Of a stretch of 64,000 bases of DNA, positions 4,825 through 36,920 are shown piece by piece (the stretch's first letter is position 1; every line of letters begins with the position of its first letter). Both the position numbers and the translations under genes were made by a program. Origin of the DNA: a virus; IMG/VR virus record IMGVR_UViG_3300001533_002283, positions 1-64,000 of that record; one strand, 5' to 3'. The notes beneath the pieces are model-generated. The model had not been told where the DNA came from. It searched no databases and worked only from the letters and a program-made list of their open reading frames with translations.

Positions 4825-4878
4825 AGGTGTTATTTACAATAGTTAAAGCAACAGAATGGGGCGAAAAATCAAGAGGTT

Positions 4879-6065: not shown

Positions 6066-6455
6066 CTATAAATGATCGTGAAAGTGAATATCTAAAACCT
6101 GCGCGGCTTCTCTTAAAACTCTGGTGATTCTTAAATCGGCGGAAGAAGGTTCGGTTTGGCCCGAAGGATGATTGTGTGAAATTATGAAAGAAACTCCGCC
6201 ACAAAGTAAAACTTGACGAAGAACATCTTTTGGGGAAACTAAAACTTGGCTTTCAATTCCAACGGTAAGAATCTTGGTTGTTAAAACATAACCCTTGTTA
6301 TTTAAAACAGTAAGGAAACAATATTCGCGAGTGGGGTCGGTTACGTTTAAAGAAAAGAATTCGCGCAAGTGGGGGAGAATGTCGGTCGGACTTTCAATTA
6401 AAAGAGCGGGGATTTCCTTGCGGGAATAAGTGATGACTGGTTCGTGAATAATCAT
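6066..6455 (-). CDS. radC: RadC-like JAB/MPN domain protein
   Basis: RE...HNHPSG..PS.AD...DH motif. Confidence 0.85.
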   Translation of the reverse strand: MIIHEPVITYSRKEIPALLIESPTDILPHLREFFSLNVTDPTREYCFLTVLNNKGYVLTTKILTVGIESQVLVSPKDVLRQVLLCGGVSFIISHNHPSGQTEPSSADLRITRVLREAAQVLDIHFHDHL

Positions 6456-6597
6456 TTTTGTGGTTGGTTCGACTAAGAGAATGACAGGGTGAGGGGAAAA
6501 AGCAAGGGGTTTTATAGGGATTTTTTAAAAAATATAAAATAAAAGGAAAAACCCCTGAGTGATTAAACCCAAGGGTTTTGTTTTCAACTTTTAAATT

Positions 6598-6990
6598 TTA
6601 ACGCTCGGCAAATCTTTCAATATATTTCACCAACTTTTCCGGCGAAACTTCGCGGCGAAACTTAATCACTTTTGTCACCTTGGGCGAACCTTTACGCCGG
6701 ATATTTAACTGACGAGTTTCCAAATTAAAACAGGCAATGTCTTTAATTGCAACATACTTGCAAGGGAATTTATCAGAGTGGAAGGTGATATAAGAAGAGC
6801 TGACACCCACTTTCAAATCGGGGCGAATTGTTTTTGTGGAAATGAAAAAATTGTTTAAGACACTTTTCCGCGCGGAAACTACCCGGTGAAACATTTCCGC
6901 TTCTTTCTTCGCATATTCTTTTTTCATCTTTTCATATGCGAACATTGCAACGCGGTTTTGCGCGGGTAGGGAATAGATGGAGGCGTTCAT
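6598..6990 (-). CDS. Hypothetical protein
   Basis: Promoter 7039-7067, CAACCACA leader, terminator at ~6548-6580. Confidence 0.7.
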   Translation of the reverse strand: MNASIYSLPAQNRVAMFAYEKMKKEYAKKEAEMFHRVVSARKSVLNNFFISTKTIRPDLKVGVSSSYITFHSDKFPCKYVAIKDIACFNLETRQLNIRRKGSPKVTKVIKFRREVSPEKLVKYIERFAER

Positions 6991-7129
6991 GTGATGTGAG
7001 TTTTCTTTTTTTTGTGGTTGGTTGAACTAACTTTTAATAAGATACCACTTTGCGGGGCGAAAGCAAGGGGTTTTATTCATATTTTGAATATTTAATAGCC
7101 AATTTTTTACTATAATTTAATAATATGCC

Positions 7130-9968: not shown

Positions 9969-10003
9969 AGGTGTTATATTTGATTTGTTTTTAAAACAAA
10001 AAC

Positions 10004-10192
10004 TTATTCGGGAAGAGTCATCAAACGAATTTCCCGCATGCGAATGTAAACTTCTTCCGCTTGGATTTTAGTATCGGTGTGAAATTTAGAGGAGTTAAGA
10101 TAAACCATAAAGAGGGAAATTTCCTGATTAATGTTCGCCAGTTGTTTTTCAAGCCGCGCGTTCTTTTCCTGAAGCTGTTGGATATAATTCAT
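10004..10192 (-). CDS. Hypothetical protein
   Basis: CAACCACA leader; coiled-coil-like. Confidence 0.65.
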   Translation of the reverse strand: MNYIQQLQEKNARLEKQLANINQEISLFMVYLNSSKFHTDTKIQAEEVYIRMREIRLMTLPE

Positions 10193-10360
10193 TTGAGTGA
10201 GTTTCTTTTTTTGTGGTTGTTTATTGATTACCCCATTACCTTAACACCTTGCCCAAACAAATCAATCTTTTTTATTTAAATATTTTCATTCCTCTTTCGA
10301 CCAAACAAAACTTTTTTAAAAAAACTCTTGTAATTTTTATCCAGCCTGCTACCTTTTAAC

Positions 10361-12131: not shown

Positions 12132-12428
12132 TTAAAGCATCTTAAAAACCTTTTTCAAGGCAGTTTCAAGGGTAACATCATTTGTGTCGTCTGGATAAAG
12201 CGGAAAATGCCAATCAAATTCTAAAACTCTCTTTCGGTCTTTAAATCGCGGGTGATTATCATCAAACCGCTTTTCATCACAAATATGATGCCAAATAGTC
12301 CACATATTAGAAGTTGAAACTTCGCCTTTTTTATCTTGAATTTCTTTTAAAACTTCGGGAAAACGTGCGTTAAGATAAACGCGAATATTTTCCACTATCA
12401 TTTTAATTGTTTCGGATTTTGCTTTCAT
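12132..12428 (-). CDS. Hypothetical protein
   Basis: Promoter 12462-12490; terminator ~12076-12110. Confidence 0.7.
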   Translation of the reverse strand: MKAKSETIKMIVENIRVYLNARFPEVLKEIQDKKGEVSTSNMWTIWHHICDEKRFDDNHPRFKDRKRVLEFDWHFPLYPDDTNDVTLETALKKVFKML

Positions 12429-12520
12429 GTTTTTGTGTGGTTAGTTGTTATCTACTCTTATAAGATAACAAAACCCAATAAGAACGCAAGGATTTTTATT
12501 GGGTTTTATCTTTTTTATTC

Positions 12521-12855: not shown

Positions 12856-13116
12856 TTAACGAGATAGAGCATTTTGACTGCGATTATAATCACTTACTGT
12901 TTTTTGAGCCTCGTTCTGATTTACAGGATCGCGTCCAAGAATAGTTTTGGCGTTTTGGAACTGAACCTCAAACCAAAACATCGCCTCTTCAGCATTAACC
13001 ATCCACTCCTTTTGTTTTTCTGTGATTGGAAAGTCTGCGCTTTGACCCGCTTTGATAAAATTTATTTGACCCCGAATTATGTCAGCGTTTTCGTTTGTTT
13101 CTAATTTAATTTTCAT
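12856..13116 (-). CDS. Hypothetical protein
   Basis: Promoter 13139-13167; CAACCAC-ATG leader. Confidence 0.7.
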   Translation of the reverse strand: MKIKLETNENADIIRGQINFIKAGQSADFPITEKQKEWMVNAEEAMFWFEVQFQNAKTILGRDPVNQNEAQKTVSDYNRSQNALSR

Positions 13117-13191
13117 GTGGTTGATTGATTACTCTTATAAGATAACAGAGTGTGGCCAAAAATCAAGAATTTTTATCTAAATTTTAAATTG

Positions 13192-14243: not shown

Positions 14244-14264
14244 GGGTGTTATTCTTTATTAAAT

Positions 14265-14350
14265 TGGTGTGCGCGGCGGGAGTCGAACCCGCACGCTTTT
14301 AAAAGCAATCGGGTTTAAGTCGATTATGGCTGCCATTACATCACGCGCAC
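14265..14350 (-). tRNA. tRNA-Leu (anticodon TAA)
   Basis: GTGCGCG/CGCGCAC acceptor, TGG D-loop, CT-TAA-AC loop, long variable arm, GGGTTCGACTCCC T-arm, encoded CCA. Confidence 0.93.
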
Positions 14351-14618: not shown

Positions 14619-15920
14619 TTATGAGTGAATATCAAAGTCAAATTTGCTACCAAACGGGGGGCGAAAATCATTATACGCAACGGTAATTCCCCAAAAAACG
14701 GGATAATCAGGAATAATATTACCAAAATTCCAGCAATAGCCATCGCTAATGACAACACATGCATCACACTTTAAATCGTTCTCATTGATATATTTAAAAA
14801 TAGGTGCATAATCAGTTCCCCCACCCCCTTTTGGATTTGGTTTAACATCCGAACCGCCTTCAAAAACCTCCATACCTTGAACCGTATGATCGAAATAAAT
14901 TACAGTAAGAGTTGCTGAATCTTTATCCTCACTCATAATATCTAAGCAATGGCGAGTTTCTTCTACAATGGCGCGAACCTCTTCCAAGTTAACTGATCCG
15001 CTAGTATCAATCGCCACAATAATGTTTGCGGGTGCTTTGGAATAAAAATCAGGAAGAATGAAGCCATTTTGTAAAAAACGGCGGTCGGGGTTTTCAAAAG
15101 AATAGTCCTTTTGGGTAACTTCCGAAACGAATTGATTAATAATTTCCCGCCAGTTAAACTTTGGCTTATAGGAATTTTCTATCATTTCAATAATAGAATT
15201 TCCGGGAAGTTCGCCCGCCGCCTTTGCAATGGAAACCGCTTGTTTGGATTGAATTTTAGCCGTTTCTTCCGCGCTTTCTTCCGTAGCGGGCCGAACCTCG
15301 CCGAAAGTTACGGGTTTTTCTTCACCTTTTTCATCATCACTTTCAAAAGAATCAGAATTATTCTCTTCCCCATCCTGATTTTCCTGATTTTCAGAATCAG
15401 AACTTTCACCTTCGCCGGAATCACCAGCGCCATTTTCGGAATCAGAATTAGAATCTTGAGATTTTTCTTTCTTCTCATTTTTCTTATCCTGCTCATTCTG
15501 CTTTTTAACCTCCTCCATAAACAAAATACGGTAAACCTCTTCCGCATTCATTCCGTCAAAACGGGAATTAATAAGAACCCCTTTAGGAAGTTTAAATCCG
15601 CTCTTAATCAACTCTGCGTTTATGCAGTAATCGCAAGCCTCATTATAAATTCGGGCGTCACGTTTTCCCATTCGGCAATGATGAAGCAAAACAAGGTGCA
15701 TCACCTCATGAACCAAAACCCCTTTGCATTCATCAAAAGAAAGAGAATCGGCAAAGTTAGAATTATAAGCAAGGCGCTTACCATCAACATAAAAGGTTGG
15801 GTTTTTATCGCTATTATCTTCAATAATTTCTTGTTGAAGAAGAATAGAAGCATAAAAAGCGTGGTTCTGAATGATGTTGTTAACAGCATCGCGAACTTTT
15901 TTGTGAGGGATTGTCTTCAT
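14619..15920 (-). CDS. Metallopeptidase (DUF2201-like) + vWA domain protein
   Basis: HEVMH zincin motif, acidic linker, DTSGS MIDAS, GGGGT, SDG. Confidence 0.85.
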   Translation of the reverse strand: MKTIPHKKVRDAVNNIIQNHAFYASILLQQEIIEDNSDKNPTFYVDGKRLAYNSNFADSLSFDECKGVLVHEVMHLVLLHHCRMGKRDARIYNEACDYCINAELIKSGFKLPKGVLINSRFDGMNAEEVYRILFMEEVKKQNEQDKKNEKKEKSQDSNSDSENGAGDSGEGESSDSENQENQDGEENNSDSFESDDEKGEEKPVTFGEVRPATEESAEETAKIQSKQAVSIAKAAGELPGNSIIEMIENSYKPKFNWREIINQFVSEVTQKDYSFENPDRRFLQNGFILPDFYSKAPANIIVAIDTSGSVNLEEVRAIVEETRHCLDIMSEDKDSATLTVIYFDHTVQGMEVFEGGSDVKPNPKGGGGTDYAPIFKYINENDLKCDACVVISDGYCWNFGNIIPDYPVFWGITVAYNDFRPPFGSKFDFDIHS

Positions 15921-16021
15921 CTAGGTATAATCTAGCAGGTTGGGCGCGGAAAACAAGAAAAAACACAAAAAGGGCTAAGATTTTTAGTCTTAACCCTGTT
16001 GAGTTTAAATAACTTAACTTT

Positions 16022-17029
16022 TTAAACCACCACGTCTTGATTTTCAACGTGCCAGTTAATGTAAACAGAAGTCTCCCTCATCTTGGGATTCTTTGTCACA
16101 ATCATTTTAACAGAAAAGGCTTCATATTCCTTGGGGAGCCGCTTGAGATAAATCAAAACCGAGTTGAAAGTTTTTTCGTCCTTGGATTTATTAGAAAGAG
16201 CGGTCAAAACAAAATAAAGAACATCGGGCTTTGCGGGAATTTGAGCTGTGGACGGATTTGCAATAATTTCAGCGGGGAGATTTGCAATTGACTTACAGAT
16301 TTTGTAATAAGCCATGAATTCCGTTGCAAAAATTTCCCCTACGGAGCCAGACCAAACCTCATGATTAACAATTCCAAGATTAATCCACTTACCAAGATTT
16401 GCAATCGTGCGCGGGCAAGCAAAATTTTGAATAGATTTGTTTTTTGGATCAAAAGTTGAAAGCATAGAGGGTTTGGCGCGAATATATGCAATCAATTCGT
16501 TTGGCATATTATTCTTTATTGCCCAATCAATCCAAGAATCTCCATCAACTTCTATTTGAAAAATTCCGGCAAAACGCGAAAGAAGCGGGGTGATTAATCC
16601 AGAAACACCCGCGTTATCAGTTTTATCATTTGTGGCAGCAATAAAACGAACCTTTGGAGAAATTTTCTTTCCATTGATCTCGCGAGCCAAAATAATTTGC
16701 ATCACGCTCGCCTGAACACTTTGAGGAGCTTGCCCTAAATCATCAAAGAGAACAACTAAATCATTTTGAGTCTCAATCATTTTTTGTAAATCTCCGTAAG
16801 GAATAAAATCGGCGGTCAATTTATCATTAACCATACCGGAAACGGGCAAACCTTTAAAGTCGATAGGGTTTGAAACAATAGGATGTTGAATCATAATTTC
16901 CATCCCCATGTTTTTAACAATGTCGCAAATAACATCGGATTTTCCTACGCCGGGCGCACCTTTCAAAAGAATGTTTAAATTATTTTGAATTGCGATAGGC
17001 AAAACATTATAGAGTTCGGTGATTTTCAT
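16022..17029 (-). CDS. MoxR-like AAA+ ATPase
   Basis: Walker A GAPGVGKS, Walker B LFDDL, AATN, SRF, CPRT. Confidence 0.85.
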   Translation of the reverse strand: MKITELYNVLPIAIQNNLNILLKGAPGVGKSDVICDIVKNMGMEIMIQHPIVSNPIDFKGLPVSGMVNDKLTADFIPYGDLQKMIETQNDLVVLFDDLGQAPQSVQASVMQIILAREINGKKISPKVRFIAATNDKTDNAGVSGLITPLLSRFAGIFQIEVDGDSWIDWAIKNNMPNELIAYIRAKPSMLSTFDPKNKSIQNFACPRTIANLGKWINLGIVNHEVWSGSVGEIFATEFMAYYKICKSIANLPAEIIANPSTAQIPAKPDVLYFVLTALSNKSKDEKTFNSVLIYLKRLPKEYEAFSVKMIVTKNPKMRETSVYINWHVENQDVVV

Positions 17030-17114
17030 GTGTTGTGGTTGGGTTGAGGACTATAGAGTGCCAGAAACGCAGCAAGAATCAAGCTATTTTTTTCAAAAAA
17101 GTGATTTAAAAATT

Positions 17115-17198
17115 AAAAACGGGGTTCTCAATTAAGAAAACCCCGTTTTACTTTGTCAACCACAACAAACCCAAGTGATTGTCAATAAACCACTTGGG
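17115..17198 (-). terminator. 3'-end element: hairpin + UGUGGUUG-loop hairpin + intrinsic terminator (copy 1)
   Basis: CCCAAGTG/CACTTGGG; TTTGT/ACAAA; AAAACGGGG/CCCCGTTTT. Confidence 0.75.
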
Positions 17199-17204
17199 AA
17201 AATG

Positions 17205-18110
17205 TTAGAAAGAGAAGTCTGCCATAGTATCGGAAATTTCTTTGATAGATTCTTTCGTTTTTTCCATCGCAACGTTGCGCGCTCTTCCGCTATTACGAAT
17301 ATTTTCCGCATCAAGTCCGCAAATGTTGTTCTCGATTACGGAAATAACTTCGGAAAGTTTTTCGTTATCATTGATATTCAATTGCTTTGCTTCCTGCAAA
17401 GTTTCGCAAAGATTGGTGATATTAGAAGTGTGAAACTTAGAATCACTATCCGAAAGACGAGAAGAAAGATGAACCAGTTTTTCATTTATGCGATGCAAAA
17501 CATCCATTTCCGCACCCTTGATTGCATCCTCAATTCTTTCTTGAATAGAATTGTTAATTTCCGCAATTTCTTCATTTGAAAGATTGTTTGTGCGAAAATC
17601 AGAATTTTCTACGGGTTTAACATTAACCCGCGCATAAAAAGAAGAGCGAAAAGCAGAAATAGAGGGATAATCGGCGCGAGAAAACATTGAACCGAGAGAC
17701 TTTCTTTCAAATTCAAAGTCACCATCAATAATTTCCTGATATTCCGCACAAGCCAAATCCACCAATTCGTAAAACTTACGAACGTTGTCTTCCAACTCGG
17801 ATTTAATTTTAGCATAGTTTGCAATTTTAACAATGCGAAAACCATCCGAACCCCAAGGGGCGGTCTTTTGATAAAAATCTAGCCGCATTTTTTGAGAAAA
17901 AGAGAGAACGGCAGCGGTTGCTTTGTTTTTCAACAAACTTTTATTAACACGGATGTAATCTACACTTCCGCCAACATCAGCGGCGGTTTCAGAAGATTGT
18001 TTCTTATCCTTTTTGTTAACAGAGAAAGTTCCAATGTTAATTCCAACAAGGATTGCTTTTTCAGCAAGATTCTTAACTTTAATAACAGACTTAATCGTGT
18101 CGGCGTTCAT
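17205..18110 (-). CDS. DUF3150-like protein (partner of AAA/vWA module)
   Basis: KKDK, T.PW...G.RI, LG.MF...DYP motifs and position upstream of the AAA/vWA genes. Confidence 0.65.
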   Translation of the reverse strand: MNADTIKSVIKVKNLAEKAILVGINIGTFSVNKKDKKQSSETAADVGGSVDYIRVNKSLLKNKATAAVLSFSQKMRLDFYQKTAPWGSDGFRIVKIANYAKIKSELEDNVRKFYELVDLACAEYQEIIDGDFEFERKSLGSMFSRADYPSISAFRSSFYARVNVKPVENSDFRTNNLSNEEIAEINNSIQERIEDAIKGAEMDVLHRINEKLVHLSSRLSDSDSKFHTSNITNLCETLQEAKQLNINDNEKLSEVISVIENNICGLDAENIRNSGRARNVAMEKTKESIKEISDTMADFSF

Positions 18111-18264
18111 TTTTGTGTTTTGTTTGTGGTTGAGTTAGCTCTTTTTGAGCATGTTTAAAATATAGCATAGAGACGGGCGAACGCAAGCGTTTTATTCAAA
18201 TATTTAAAAGATTTTTTATCCAAACGGTTTAACTTAATACAAATCACTATCACTTTTAAAATTA

Positions 18265-18338
18265 AAGGCGGGGCTCTCACTTAAGAAAACCCCGCCTAGT
18301 TTTGCCAACCACAGCAAACTCGGAATCTTAATCCCGAG
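18265..18338 (-). terminator. 3'-end element: hairpin + UGUGGUUG-loop hairpin + intrinsic terminator (copy 2)
   Basis: CTCGG/CCGAG; TTTGC/GCAAA; AGGCGGGG/CCCCGCCT. Confidence 0.75.
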
Positions 18339-18347
18339 AAATTAGTT

Positions 18348-18647
18348 TTATGTTTTTTTTACCAGAAGTTTCCCGCCTTCCAAAATATAAAATGGGGAGA
18401 AAATCTCTGTCCTGATATCGGGCTGGCTTACAATTATTTTATGAATCTCTTCAAAATAAGGCGTAAAACCCCGTGCAATAACTTTCCCCGCCTTCGCCTC
18501 TAAATATTCCGCGCAATCCTCTGAGTTGGAAAAGGTGGCGCGAGTATTAACCCGTAAACTTTGCAGACTTATTTCCTGAATCAATAAAGAATAACCTATT
18601 GAGGAATTGTAACTTAGGGAAATGTAATTTGCATTAACTTTTTTCAT
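18348..18647 (-). CDS. Hypothetical protein
   Basis: ATGA overlap; tiles the array. Confidence 0.6.
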   Translation of the reverse strand: MKKVNANYISLSYNSSIGYSLLIQEISLQSLRVNTRATFSNSEDCAEYLEAKAGKVIARGFTPYFEEIHKIIVSQPDIRTEIFSPFYILEGGKLLVKKT

Positions 18648-18937
18648 TTCTTATCCTCCATACTCTTTTTCGCATTTCTCGCCATTTCATTTAAAACATT
18701 CAGAGAGTCTCTATATTCAAACGAATTAGCATGGGACGAAATTAAATTGAGAAACAAATCCGCCATGTTTCCAACTCCCAATTCATAATCAGTCTTTCCA
18801 TCTTTAAAACGGAGTTTTCTGAGTTGAACGAGAGCGGCTTGAATTTTTTCTTTATCTTTCATTTGGTTTTTGTTTACTCGTTTAGAATGCTCCTTCTTTA
18901 GGTTGAAAGCAAGATAATTTATTTTATTTCTTATCAA
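18644..18937 (-). CDS. Hypothetical protein
   Basis: Tiles the array; start may be 18862. Confidence 0.55.
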   Translation of the reverse strand: MIRNKINYLAFNLKKEHSKRVNKNQMKDKEKIQAALVQLRKLRFKDGKTDYELGVGNMADLFLNLISSHANSFEYRDSLNVLNEMARNAKKSMEDKK

Positions 18938-19167
18938 TACTGAGACAATTCCTTTATCATCTCACCGACTTTTAATCGCGCCGATTTAATCAAATTACGA
19001 TTCACTTGATAAGGTGTGAACTTTTTACAATTTTGTTTAAACTCTTCGCGCTCAAACATTAGAGCGAACTTTTTAATTAAAATTGTTTGGCCGTGAGGCA
19101 TTAAATTATAACCCTTTTTTAGCCAGTAATTTCTGCCTTTGATAATTATTCTTTCGGCGAGATTCAT
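18934..19167 (-). CDS. Hypothetical protein
   Basis: Promoter upstream. Confidence 0.6.
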   Translation of the reverse strand: MNLAERIIIKGRNYWLKKGYNLMPHGQTILIKKFALMFEREEFKQNCKKFTPYQVNRNLIKSARLKVGEMIKELSQY

Positions 19168-20502: not shown

Positions 20503-20940
20503 TTATCGGCTTACAACTATGCAAAATCCAGTTACAGACTCCGCTCCATTTTCCAAAAGTTTTTTAGCCGCGCAAACCATAGACGCGCCGGTTATAGAAT
20601 AATCGTCAACGAGAAGAATTTTTCCAGCGACCCTCTTAGATTGAAACATTTCCGCGCTCTTTTTGTGTCGCAAGTTAACGGGGATTTTGGAAATCCTACC
20701 ATTTTTAACCAAAGTATCAAAATCTGAAACTTTAATCCCGCTCAAACGGTTTATTCTATTCGCAAAGTTTGCCACAAGTTTTTTACTACTCGGCATGATT
20801 ACAACCGAGTCAAATTCACCTTCGGGAATTGAAAAGTTAAAATTAACGATTCCCTTTCGCTTGAAAGTGATGAGACCTCCAAATTTATTCTTCTTTTGAA
20901 GGGCCCGAATTTTAACCCCGTTTCGGTTACGATAATACAT
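20503..20940 (-). CDS. Phosphoribosyltransferase (ComF-like PRTase fold)
   Basis: PRPP-binding motif ILLVDDYSITGAS; CAACCACA leader supports start 20940 (track start 20964). Confidence 0.8.
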   Translation of the reverse strand: MYYRNRNGVKIRALQKKNKFGGLITFKRKGIVNFNFSIPEGEFDSVVIMPSSKKLVANFANRINRLSGIKVSDFDTLVKNGRISKIPVNLRHKKSAEMFQSKRVAGKILLVDDYSITGASMVCAAKKLLENGAESVTGFCIVVSR

Positions 20941-20986
20941 AGTAGTGTGGTTGACTATGGACAAGGTAACAGAGTGCGGGCGAAGG

Positions 20987-25295: not shown

Positions 25296-25519
25296 CGGTT
25301 TAAAAAATTATTTTTCAGATATAACTTCACTAAATTTTGCGAAAGGAATTTTTATTTTCATAAAATCAGATATAATCGCGTGCCTCTCATTAATAGAACG
25401 GTGCAATAAACGTTTGTTTATATTTTTTATTTCGTTGATTTGTTTTGTATTCATGGTGTGGTTTCTTCTTAATTCGGTTAAGAATCTAGTGTTAACGGGG
25501 TGAAATCAAGAGATTTTAT

Positions 25520-31904: not shown

Positions 31905-31964
31905 GAGTGTTATTCCCTAAATTTAGGGAAACGAGAAAGAAAAATCAAGAGATTTTGTTAAAAA

Positions 31965-36875: not shown

Positions 36876-36920
36876 TGGGTGGTTAGTTCGAGATAGAAGA
36901 TAGCATTCGGAGGGAGGAAA

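Follow-up and report, generated by a model that had tools for sequence, protein, structure and literature searches.

A 3'UTR hairpin whose loop is complementary to a shared box in early-gene leaders of a large phage: a candidate anti-leader RNA

Two neighboring transcript ends on the minus strand of a large phage genome carry, just before an intrinsic terminator, a small hairpin whose loop is the complement of a motif found in the leaders of early genes. What might such a loop do, and on which transcripts? The timing of gene expression in large lytic phages is commonly attributed to proteins, namely, sigma factors, anti-sigma factors, RegA, and RegB, and phage-encoded regulatory RNAs are, to our knowledge, barely explored. 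The source record is a 172,181-bp virus genome rated complete, and the stretch analyzed, here called the window, is its first 64 kb (38% G+C). The original prediction was that the two ends are antisense RNAs derived from 3' untranslated regions (3'UTRs), or elements that close an mRNA from 5' to 3' end, and that they co-regulate a set of early genes through a common leader.

The leader motif, CAACCACA, has nine exact matches in the window against 1.09 expected, a number that none of 100 shuffles reached, and 12 copies in the whole 172-kb genome. All seven minus-strand copies in the window lie in 5' leaders, 0 to 22 nt before a start codon and downstream of a shared early promoter, in agreement with the predicted enrichment in the leaders of at least seven early genes. 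With two one-mismatch variants added, the tagged early leaders number at least nine (Table 1), and in eight of nine the box has a predicted unpaired probability of 0.92 to 0.99. The two plus-strand copies (17157-17164 and 18306-18313) are the loops of small minus-strand hairpins immediately before strong terminators. Two of the gene labels originally proposed, RadC and AAA ATPase, were confirmed; "DUF3150-like," for a 301-aa protein, and "PRTase," for the 20503-20940 product, were dropped, as searches of Pfam and PHROGs gave no family for either protein.

The shared promoter is sigma70-like and is composed of an A-rich upstream stretch, CTTGAtt, 16 to 17 nt, and a TAtcTT-like -10 element. About 30 early promoters of this type lie between ~5 and ~60 kb, and the sequence AACCAC is present in 11 of their leaders, where it starts 10 to 27 nt after the -10 element; in relatives of the phage, many boxes begin 6 to 10 bp after that element. 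Several early genes (minus-strand starts 26339, 13455, 11423, 40012, and 56607) have the -10 element just 6 to 7 nt before the ATG, and their mRNAs may therefore be leaderless. The early region also contains a minus-strand tRNA-Leu gene (anticodon TAA) at 14265-14350. Downstream of the AAA ATPase gene is a gene encoding DUF2201_N and a VWA-like DUF2201 domain (14619-15920), and this gene pair is present, together with the 301-aa gene, in all relatives.

The box had been taken for the phage's own translation-initiation motif, and this part of the original prediction did not hold. A Shine-Dalgarno (SD) signal was not found in the phage: G is underrepresented ahead of start codons, and 46 of 257 upstream regions contain SD-like words. 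The commonest start-proximal motif is TAACAC(Y), which occupies a fixed position, -9 to -4, in ~30 genes, including operon-internal ones, and looks like a private non-SD ribosome-binding signal. Because TAACAC(Y) is the main start-proximal motif and is also used inside operons, AACCAC is better described as an early-leader tag, located within the ribosome-binding window at a variable distance from the start, and is not demonstrably the main initiation motif.

The two 3' ends have the sequence, coordinates, and three-part layout originally described. Each folds as a hairpin, a small hairpin, and a terminator, with energies of -38.7 and -39.4 kcal/mol (z = -5.7 and -5.9), and both terminators were also detected by a terminator scan. 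The modules begin 6 to 9 nt past a stop codon and finish at a strong rho-independent terminator with a 13- to 14-bp stem and a T-rich tail, a 3'UTR-embedded position that recurs in the relatives L025, L026, and L028. The minimum-energy fold shrinks the loop of the small hairpin, hereafter the seed, to 4 nt, and the core pairing within the loop comprises 6 nt. Both units in the window have a boxed leader at the start and a seed at the end. The terminator stems and loops are near-identical, and the two copies therefore count as approximately one independent event; they are paralogous copies of one unit, a single invention that was duplicated. The single stem pair that changes between them, originally offered as covariation, is weak on its own because the copies are paralogous. 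No comparable anti-leader hairpin was found at other terminators of this genome. A genome scan gave no strong intrinsic minus-strand terminator between ~47.3 kb and 18.3 kb, though many early promoters lie there, and copy 2 therefore closes a very long, multi-promoter early region. The terminators behind the modules (17116-17149 and 18266-18297) read as terminators on both strands.

Table 1. Positions of the leader boxes, the two 3' modules, and associated features (window coordinates unless a locus is named)
Feature	Position	Strand	Details
301-aa early gene	17205..18110	-	3'UTR bears copy 1; homologs in relatives bear the same element
Promoter of 301-aa gene	-35 at 18181-18186, -10 at 18159-18164	-	
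99-aa gene upstream of 301-aa gene	18348-18647	-	Followed by copy 2
Copy 1, hairpin 1	17170..17198	-	11-bp stem; 6 nt after 301-aa stop codon; fold and terminator scan
Copy 1, small seed hairpin	17152..17169	-	GUGGUU loop at 17158-17163; U.G closing pair; weak, -2.8 kcal/mol
Copy 1, intrinsic terminator	17108..17149	-	14-bp stem, 6 G-C pairs, T-rich tail
Copy 2, hairpin 1	18319..18338	-	8-bp stem; 9 nt after 99-aa stop codon; fold and terminator scan
Copy 2, small seed hairpin	18301..18318	-	GUGGUU loop at 18307-18312; differs from copy 1 in both bases of one stem pair
Copy 2, intrinsic terminator	18258..18297	-	13-bp stem, 8 G-C pairs; first strong terminator downstream of ~47.3 kb
Leader box, 301-aa gene	18125..18132	-	14 nt before ATG; predicted duplex with copy 1, -17.7 kcal/mol
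Leader box, AAA ATPase gene (16022-17029)	17034..17041	-	4 nt before ATG; 11-nt perfect match to copy 1
Leader box, gene 20503-20940	20946..20953	-	5 nt before ATG; best predicted target of copy 2, -16.5 kcal/mol
Leader box, gene 12856-13116	13116..13123	-	Overlaps ATG
Leader box, gene 10004-10192	10212..10219	-	19 nt before ATG
Leader box, gene 6598-6990	7013..7020	-	22 nt before ATG
Leader box, RadC-like gene 6066-6455	6459..6466	-	3 nt before ATG
Variant leader box, T at first position	12436..12443	-	After early promoter, before gene 12132-12428
Variant leader box, A at first position	25457..25464	-	2 nt before ATG of gene 25308-25454
Further AACCAC leader	~36879-36885		
TAACAC(Y), examples	4825-4832, 9969-9976, 14244-14251, 31905-31912		
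Reverse-strand gene in relatives, putative insertion	L025:11012-12226, L026:3209-4341, L028:2908-4047, L034:1145-2101, L035:1151-2350, L041:3926-4879		

The 301-aa protein has 16 homologs in public assemblies, and 13 loci were examined along with near-duplicates of one clade. The hairpin-bearing relatives, which were found only through exact-protein look-ups, are L025 (85% protein identity), L026 (76%), and L028 (71%), and in each the homologous stop codon is immediately followed by the three-hairpin layout. As the original prediction required of homologous 3' ends, the loop is conserved: GUGGUU is invariant in five hairpin copies from four phages. The loop had, however, been read as an identical 8-mer, and its outer two bases form a closing pair that is U.G in this phage, C-G in L025 and L026, and U-A in L028; the conserved loop is therefore 6 nt. 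Across the four phages, the stem covaries, with five of the six pairs changing on both sides and 93% of cells pairing, a level reached by 1 of 500 shuffles. Sliding the stem partner by 1 to 3 columns collapsed this signal. Covariation was counted on a loop-anchored 20-nt alignment of the five hairpins, a MAFFT alignment of hairpin plus terminator having misplaced L028. Just five hairpin-plus-terminator instances occur in ~330 kb of genome and loci, and reversed or permuted control motifs gave scattered chance stems only in the same sequences.

The leader box accompanies the hairpin. AACCAC occurs on the gene strand 9, 5, and 6 times in L025, L026, and L028, respectively, versus 0 to 3 times in nine hairpin-less loci, and the 301-aa gene's own leader is boxed in all four hairpin genomes. 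In the protein tree, these genomes form one or two lineages at a polytomy, with a sister group that includes L027, L029, and L034, and the co-occurrence of box and hairpin therefore represents approximately one evolutionary event.

Wider searches added no further hairpins. A BLAST search of a phage collection with 16000-19000 gave no match, the terminator-module and hairpin-plus-terminator patterns had 0 matches in IMG/VR, and a protein-guided scan with the AAA ATPase yielded no loci. Scans of IMG/VR and JGI metagenomes with the 301-aa protein and its alignment recovered only relatives of the hairpin-less L009 clade. Fifteen IMG/VR matches to an exact 18-mer of the hairpin were rejected as chance matches, none having a terminator nearby.

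Other features of the same 3' region also vary among the relatives. Conservation across lineages extends to the terminator of the 301-aa gene, which has a palindromic TTAATT-type loop and is found in L009 (L009:3889-3915) and L036 too; in the L009/L035 clade its 5' arm contains GGUGGUU, adjoining the loop. The more distant L041 (60% identity) has a small pre-terminator hairpin at L041:3867-3925 with a similar stem and a 12-nt loop, and this loop resembles its leader in the sense, not the antisense, orientation. In six relatives, a reverse-strand gene of 316 to 404 aa lies between the 301-aa and AAA ATPase genes, with a small HTH_17 neighbor in L026 and L028. Its absence from this phage, L027, L029, and L009 suggests a mobile insertion, one that shares the existing terminator but reads into it from the opposite direction.

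How specific is the complementarity between seed and leaders? The bases that flank the 6-nt core are informative. In this phage, the leader flanks are C...A in seven of seven leaders and the hairpin flanks are U...G; in L026, the leader flanks are C...G in three of four and the hairpin flanks are also C...G; and in L028, a T before the box in all leaders is matched by an A after the loop. The exception is L025, where the hairpin has a C before the loop and the leaders have no G after the box. Judged by these flanks, seed and target appear to co-vary, with the exception of the one L025 position, and contiguous pairing is longest with the cognate leaders for four of the five hairpins.

A longest-match matrix of whole 3'UTRs against leaders, with a diagonal of 7.5 versus an off-diagonal of 6.7, was swamped by A/T-rich low-complexity matches, and energy and shuffle tests on the pre-terminator segment were therefore used. 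In the four hairpin genomes, the seed paired with its own leader better than composition-preserving shuffles did (p = 0.001 to 0.0025). The mean energy of the top three targets over all upstream regions of a locus gave p <= 0.003 for copy 1, L025, L026, and L028, and p = 0.033 for copy 2. Promoter-proximal early leaders headed the target ranking in every case; in this phage they filled the first 8 places among 125 upstream regions. Predicted duplexes have energies of -14 to -21 kcal/mol, versus only -2.6 to -5.8 kcal/mol for the small hairpins, and end 1 to 26 nt before the ATG, inside the ribosome-binding window; in this phage they comprise 9 to 11 contiguous pairs at -14 to -18 kcal/mol.

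The sister lineages L027, L029, and L034 have plain terminators, different leader boxes, and no hairpin. Instead, a linear stretch between stop codon and terminator is complementary to early leaders of the same phage, with different sequences. In L029, this is an 8+5-bp duplex of -17.4 kcal/mol (own leader, p = 0.0025; top-3 mean, p = 0.003). In L027, it is a 17-bp duplex with a 2-nt bulge to another early leader, at -18.9 kcal/mol (own leader, p = 0.06; top-3 mean, p = 0.003), and L034 is a marginal case, in which 8 nt match the phage's own leader (own leader, p = 0.03; top-3 mean, p = 0.10). The eight remaining, more distant loci, out of 15 seeds tested, showed no significant complementarity by the shuffle tests, and the function would therefore not be universal in the 301-aa gene family. 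Fisher's method on the eight hairpin-less own-leader p-values gave ~0.003, with one locus counted for the near-identical L033 and L036.

The most economical reading of these observations is a relation between RNA and RNA. We propose, with a probability of roughly 0.45, that an anti-leader RNA borne in the 3'UTR pairs with the tagged early leaders, occludes their ribosome-binding regions, and thereby damps early translation. The seed would reside in the 3'UTR of the 301-aa early gene, with a duplicate ending the long early operon upstream, and would be displayed by a weak hairpin flanked by a stable 5' hairpin and the intrinsic terminator. In vivo its pairing partner would be the (C/U)AACCAC box, which nine or more early mRNAs would present single-stranded in their leaders. 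At 0 to 22 nt upstream of the start codon, the box falls within the 30S footprint, and a duplex there should therefore block initiation; it may also create a double-strand cleavage site. Early translation would then be damped as early transcripts accumulate, or as a stable 3' fragment of hairpin, seed, and terminator does, the layout being one that would suit such a fragment; the fragment and its abundance, like the transcription start sites, are things that we infer. The outcome would be an RNA-based early shut-off, or feedback. Recognizable genes for Hfq, RNase III, and S21 were not found in the phage genome. The target ranking fits a trans effect on the full set of tagged leaders, and this is the mode that we favor.

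An alternative that keeps the RNA-RNA pairing is a 5'-3' closure of the icaR type, in which the seed would bind the leader of the transcript that carries it and so limit the translation or stability of the 301-aa mRNA, with copy 2 doing likewise for its operon. Much of the conservation is compatible with this: the element is strictly linked to the 301-aa gene across lineages, both window units open with a boxed leader and close with a seed, and the own leader, boxed in every hairpin genome and with a matching sequence in L029 and L034, is complementary to the seed in six to seven lineages. Ranked among all upstream regions, the own leader is 1st to 3rd in this phage, L026, L028, L029, and L034. 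It is not consistently the best target, however, being 5th in L025 and 7th in L027, and numerous early leaders besides it are matched as closely or more closely. Closure is also less plausible for copy 2, which ends a multi-promoter region tens of kilobases long. We consider closure unlikely. The originally predicted antisense relation extends beyond one genome, in the conserved loop, the stem covariation, the co-occurrence of box and hairpin, and the sister clade; the sequence evidence is compatible with both of its variants, a trans-acting small RNA and closure in cis.

Chance has to be weighed as well. The hairpin could have an unrelated function, such as binding a protein through its loop, directing RNA processing, or assisting the terminator, with the leader complementarity due to chance or base composition. 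The shared core is just 6 nt and the pattern was found post hoc in a very large scan, C/A-rich leaders and G/U-rich 3'UTR stretches inflate matches, the lineages are few and half of the relatives have no match at all, and hairpin 1 with its U-rich stretch is itself terminator-like. Against this, controls that preserve composition were still beaten, two conserved 6-mers that are exact complements are improbable, L027 and L029 show complementarity again through sequences of their own, and the flanks co-vary in L026 and L028. On balance, we regard an unrelated function as rather improbable.

The arrangement of neighboring genes suggests a further possibility, that on read-through transcripts the upstream seed sequesters, in cis, the leader of the next gene 115 to 175 nt downstream, such that this gene is translated only from transcripts of its own promoter. 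Each seed in the window is indeed followed by a promoter and a boxed leader, as are those in L027 and L029, and the best match of copy 1 is the next leader, at 17034, whose predicted 11-nt perfect match we confirmed. In L025, L026, and L028, however, the following gene is encoded convergently on the other strand, with the leader of the AAA gene more than 1 kb away; the terminators are, moreover, very strong. This makes occlusion by read-through very unlikely.

Equally improbable is a role at the DNA level, with the box binding a DNA-binding regulator of early promoters and the inverted copies at 3' ends serving as extra sites. A double-stranded site is neutral as to orientation, and all copies would change together between phages, as was observed; the short distance from the -10 element (6 to 10 bp for many boxes in relatives, 10 to 27 bp here) would also be suitable. 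Yet every leader copy faces the same way with respect to transcription, its distance to promoter and ATG varies, the covarying stem around the inverted copies goes unexplained, and the sister clade has a bulged linear complement instead of a repeated site. Pairing of the leader box with the 16S rRNA 3' end, the hairpin then mimicking rRNA, was considered and set aside: the possible resemblance is to the 3' strand of helix 45, which is base-paired in the ribosome.

The anti-leader reading would have consequences beyond this phage. A more general, and tentative, proposal is that large lytic phages of non-SD hosts may mark early transcripts with a leader box of their own, and that the 3'UTR seed of one early gene may serve as an RNA-only timer. 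Such a timer would switch off the entire early class, and tag and seed would co-evolve lineage by lineage; we consider this possible, if doubtful. Regulator and target tag are both readable from sequence and change together across lineages, so that the shut-off of an entire gene class by RNA, in a phage without SD pairing, becomes directly testable. A 3'UTR seed complementary to a class-specific leader is also a genomic signature for which other phages can be searched. Practical use would be modest, in the annotation of operons and regulons of uncultured phages and as a compact, orthogonal pair of RNA repressor and tag.

The original prediction knew of no description of such an arrangement, a statement that is too strong, as close analogs exist. 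In the icaR mRNA of Staphylococcus aureus, a 3'UTR motif pairs with the mRNA's own ribosome-binding region, blocks initiation, and creates an RNase III substrate (PMC3868564). The likeness is a short 3'UTR motif complementary to a ribosome-binding region of the same mRNA. In this phage, the genome is without SD signals and the target is not an SD sequence but the C/A-rich AACCAC box, common to at least nine early leaders, and a regulon is therefore as likely as self-control, unlike in icaR; further, the seed is on a small hairpin beside a terminator, in a phage and not a cell, and is known from sequence alone. The CcsR ("Cuckoo") small RNAs of Rhodobacter sphaeroides and other Alphaproteobacteria derive from the mRNA 3'UTR of a small gene and have loops complementary to ribosome-binding sites (PMC8034643). 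These loops carry the anti-SD motif CCUCCUCCC, with two hairpins each, and the RNAs are present in tandem copies, linked to DUF1127, processed by RNase E, and induced by stress (PMC8034643). The 3'UTR origin and hairpin loops with a conserved motif against ribosome-binding sites are shared with our element; the CcsR RNAs are cellular and stress-induced, and in place of CCUCCUCCC loops beside a DUF1127 gene, the phage has a GUGGUU loop beside a protein without a Pfam family and with no Rfam match. The c4 antisense RNA of phages P1 and P7 is encoded in the operon of its targets, pairs with the operon mRNA, and blocks downstream genes (Citron and Schuster 1990, as cited in PMC8198154). Within the immI operon it occupies the 5' end, and it controls one operon (icd/ant) in the lysogeny decision (PMC8198154). 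It too is a phage RNA encoded alongside its targets that pairs with their mRNA to block expression, from the 5' end of one operon versus a 3'UTR element here. An Rfam cmscan of 16900-18500 at E <= 1 returned four chance-level matches to unrelated families only, and the C4 model was not matched. By analogy, the element would act like icaR, CcsR, and c4, yet it is a member of none of them, because its target is not an SD sequence, its loop motif and gene context differ, and Rfam gave no match.

The functional parallel is with phage T4, in which RegA is a translational repressor of early mRNAs and RegB is a nuclease that cuts early ribosome-binding sites. A RegA-family search gave no match in this phage, and control genomes gave no signal either. 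The proposed shut-off would likewise be post-transcriptional and would act on early mRNAs through a shared feature of the initiation region; the T4 regulators, in contrast, are proteins. If the proposal is true, the RNA-only timer would be the RNA counterpart of T4 RegA and RegB.
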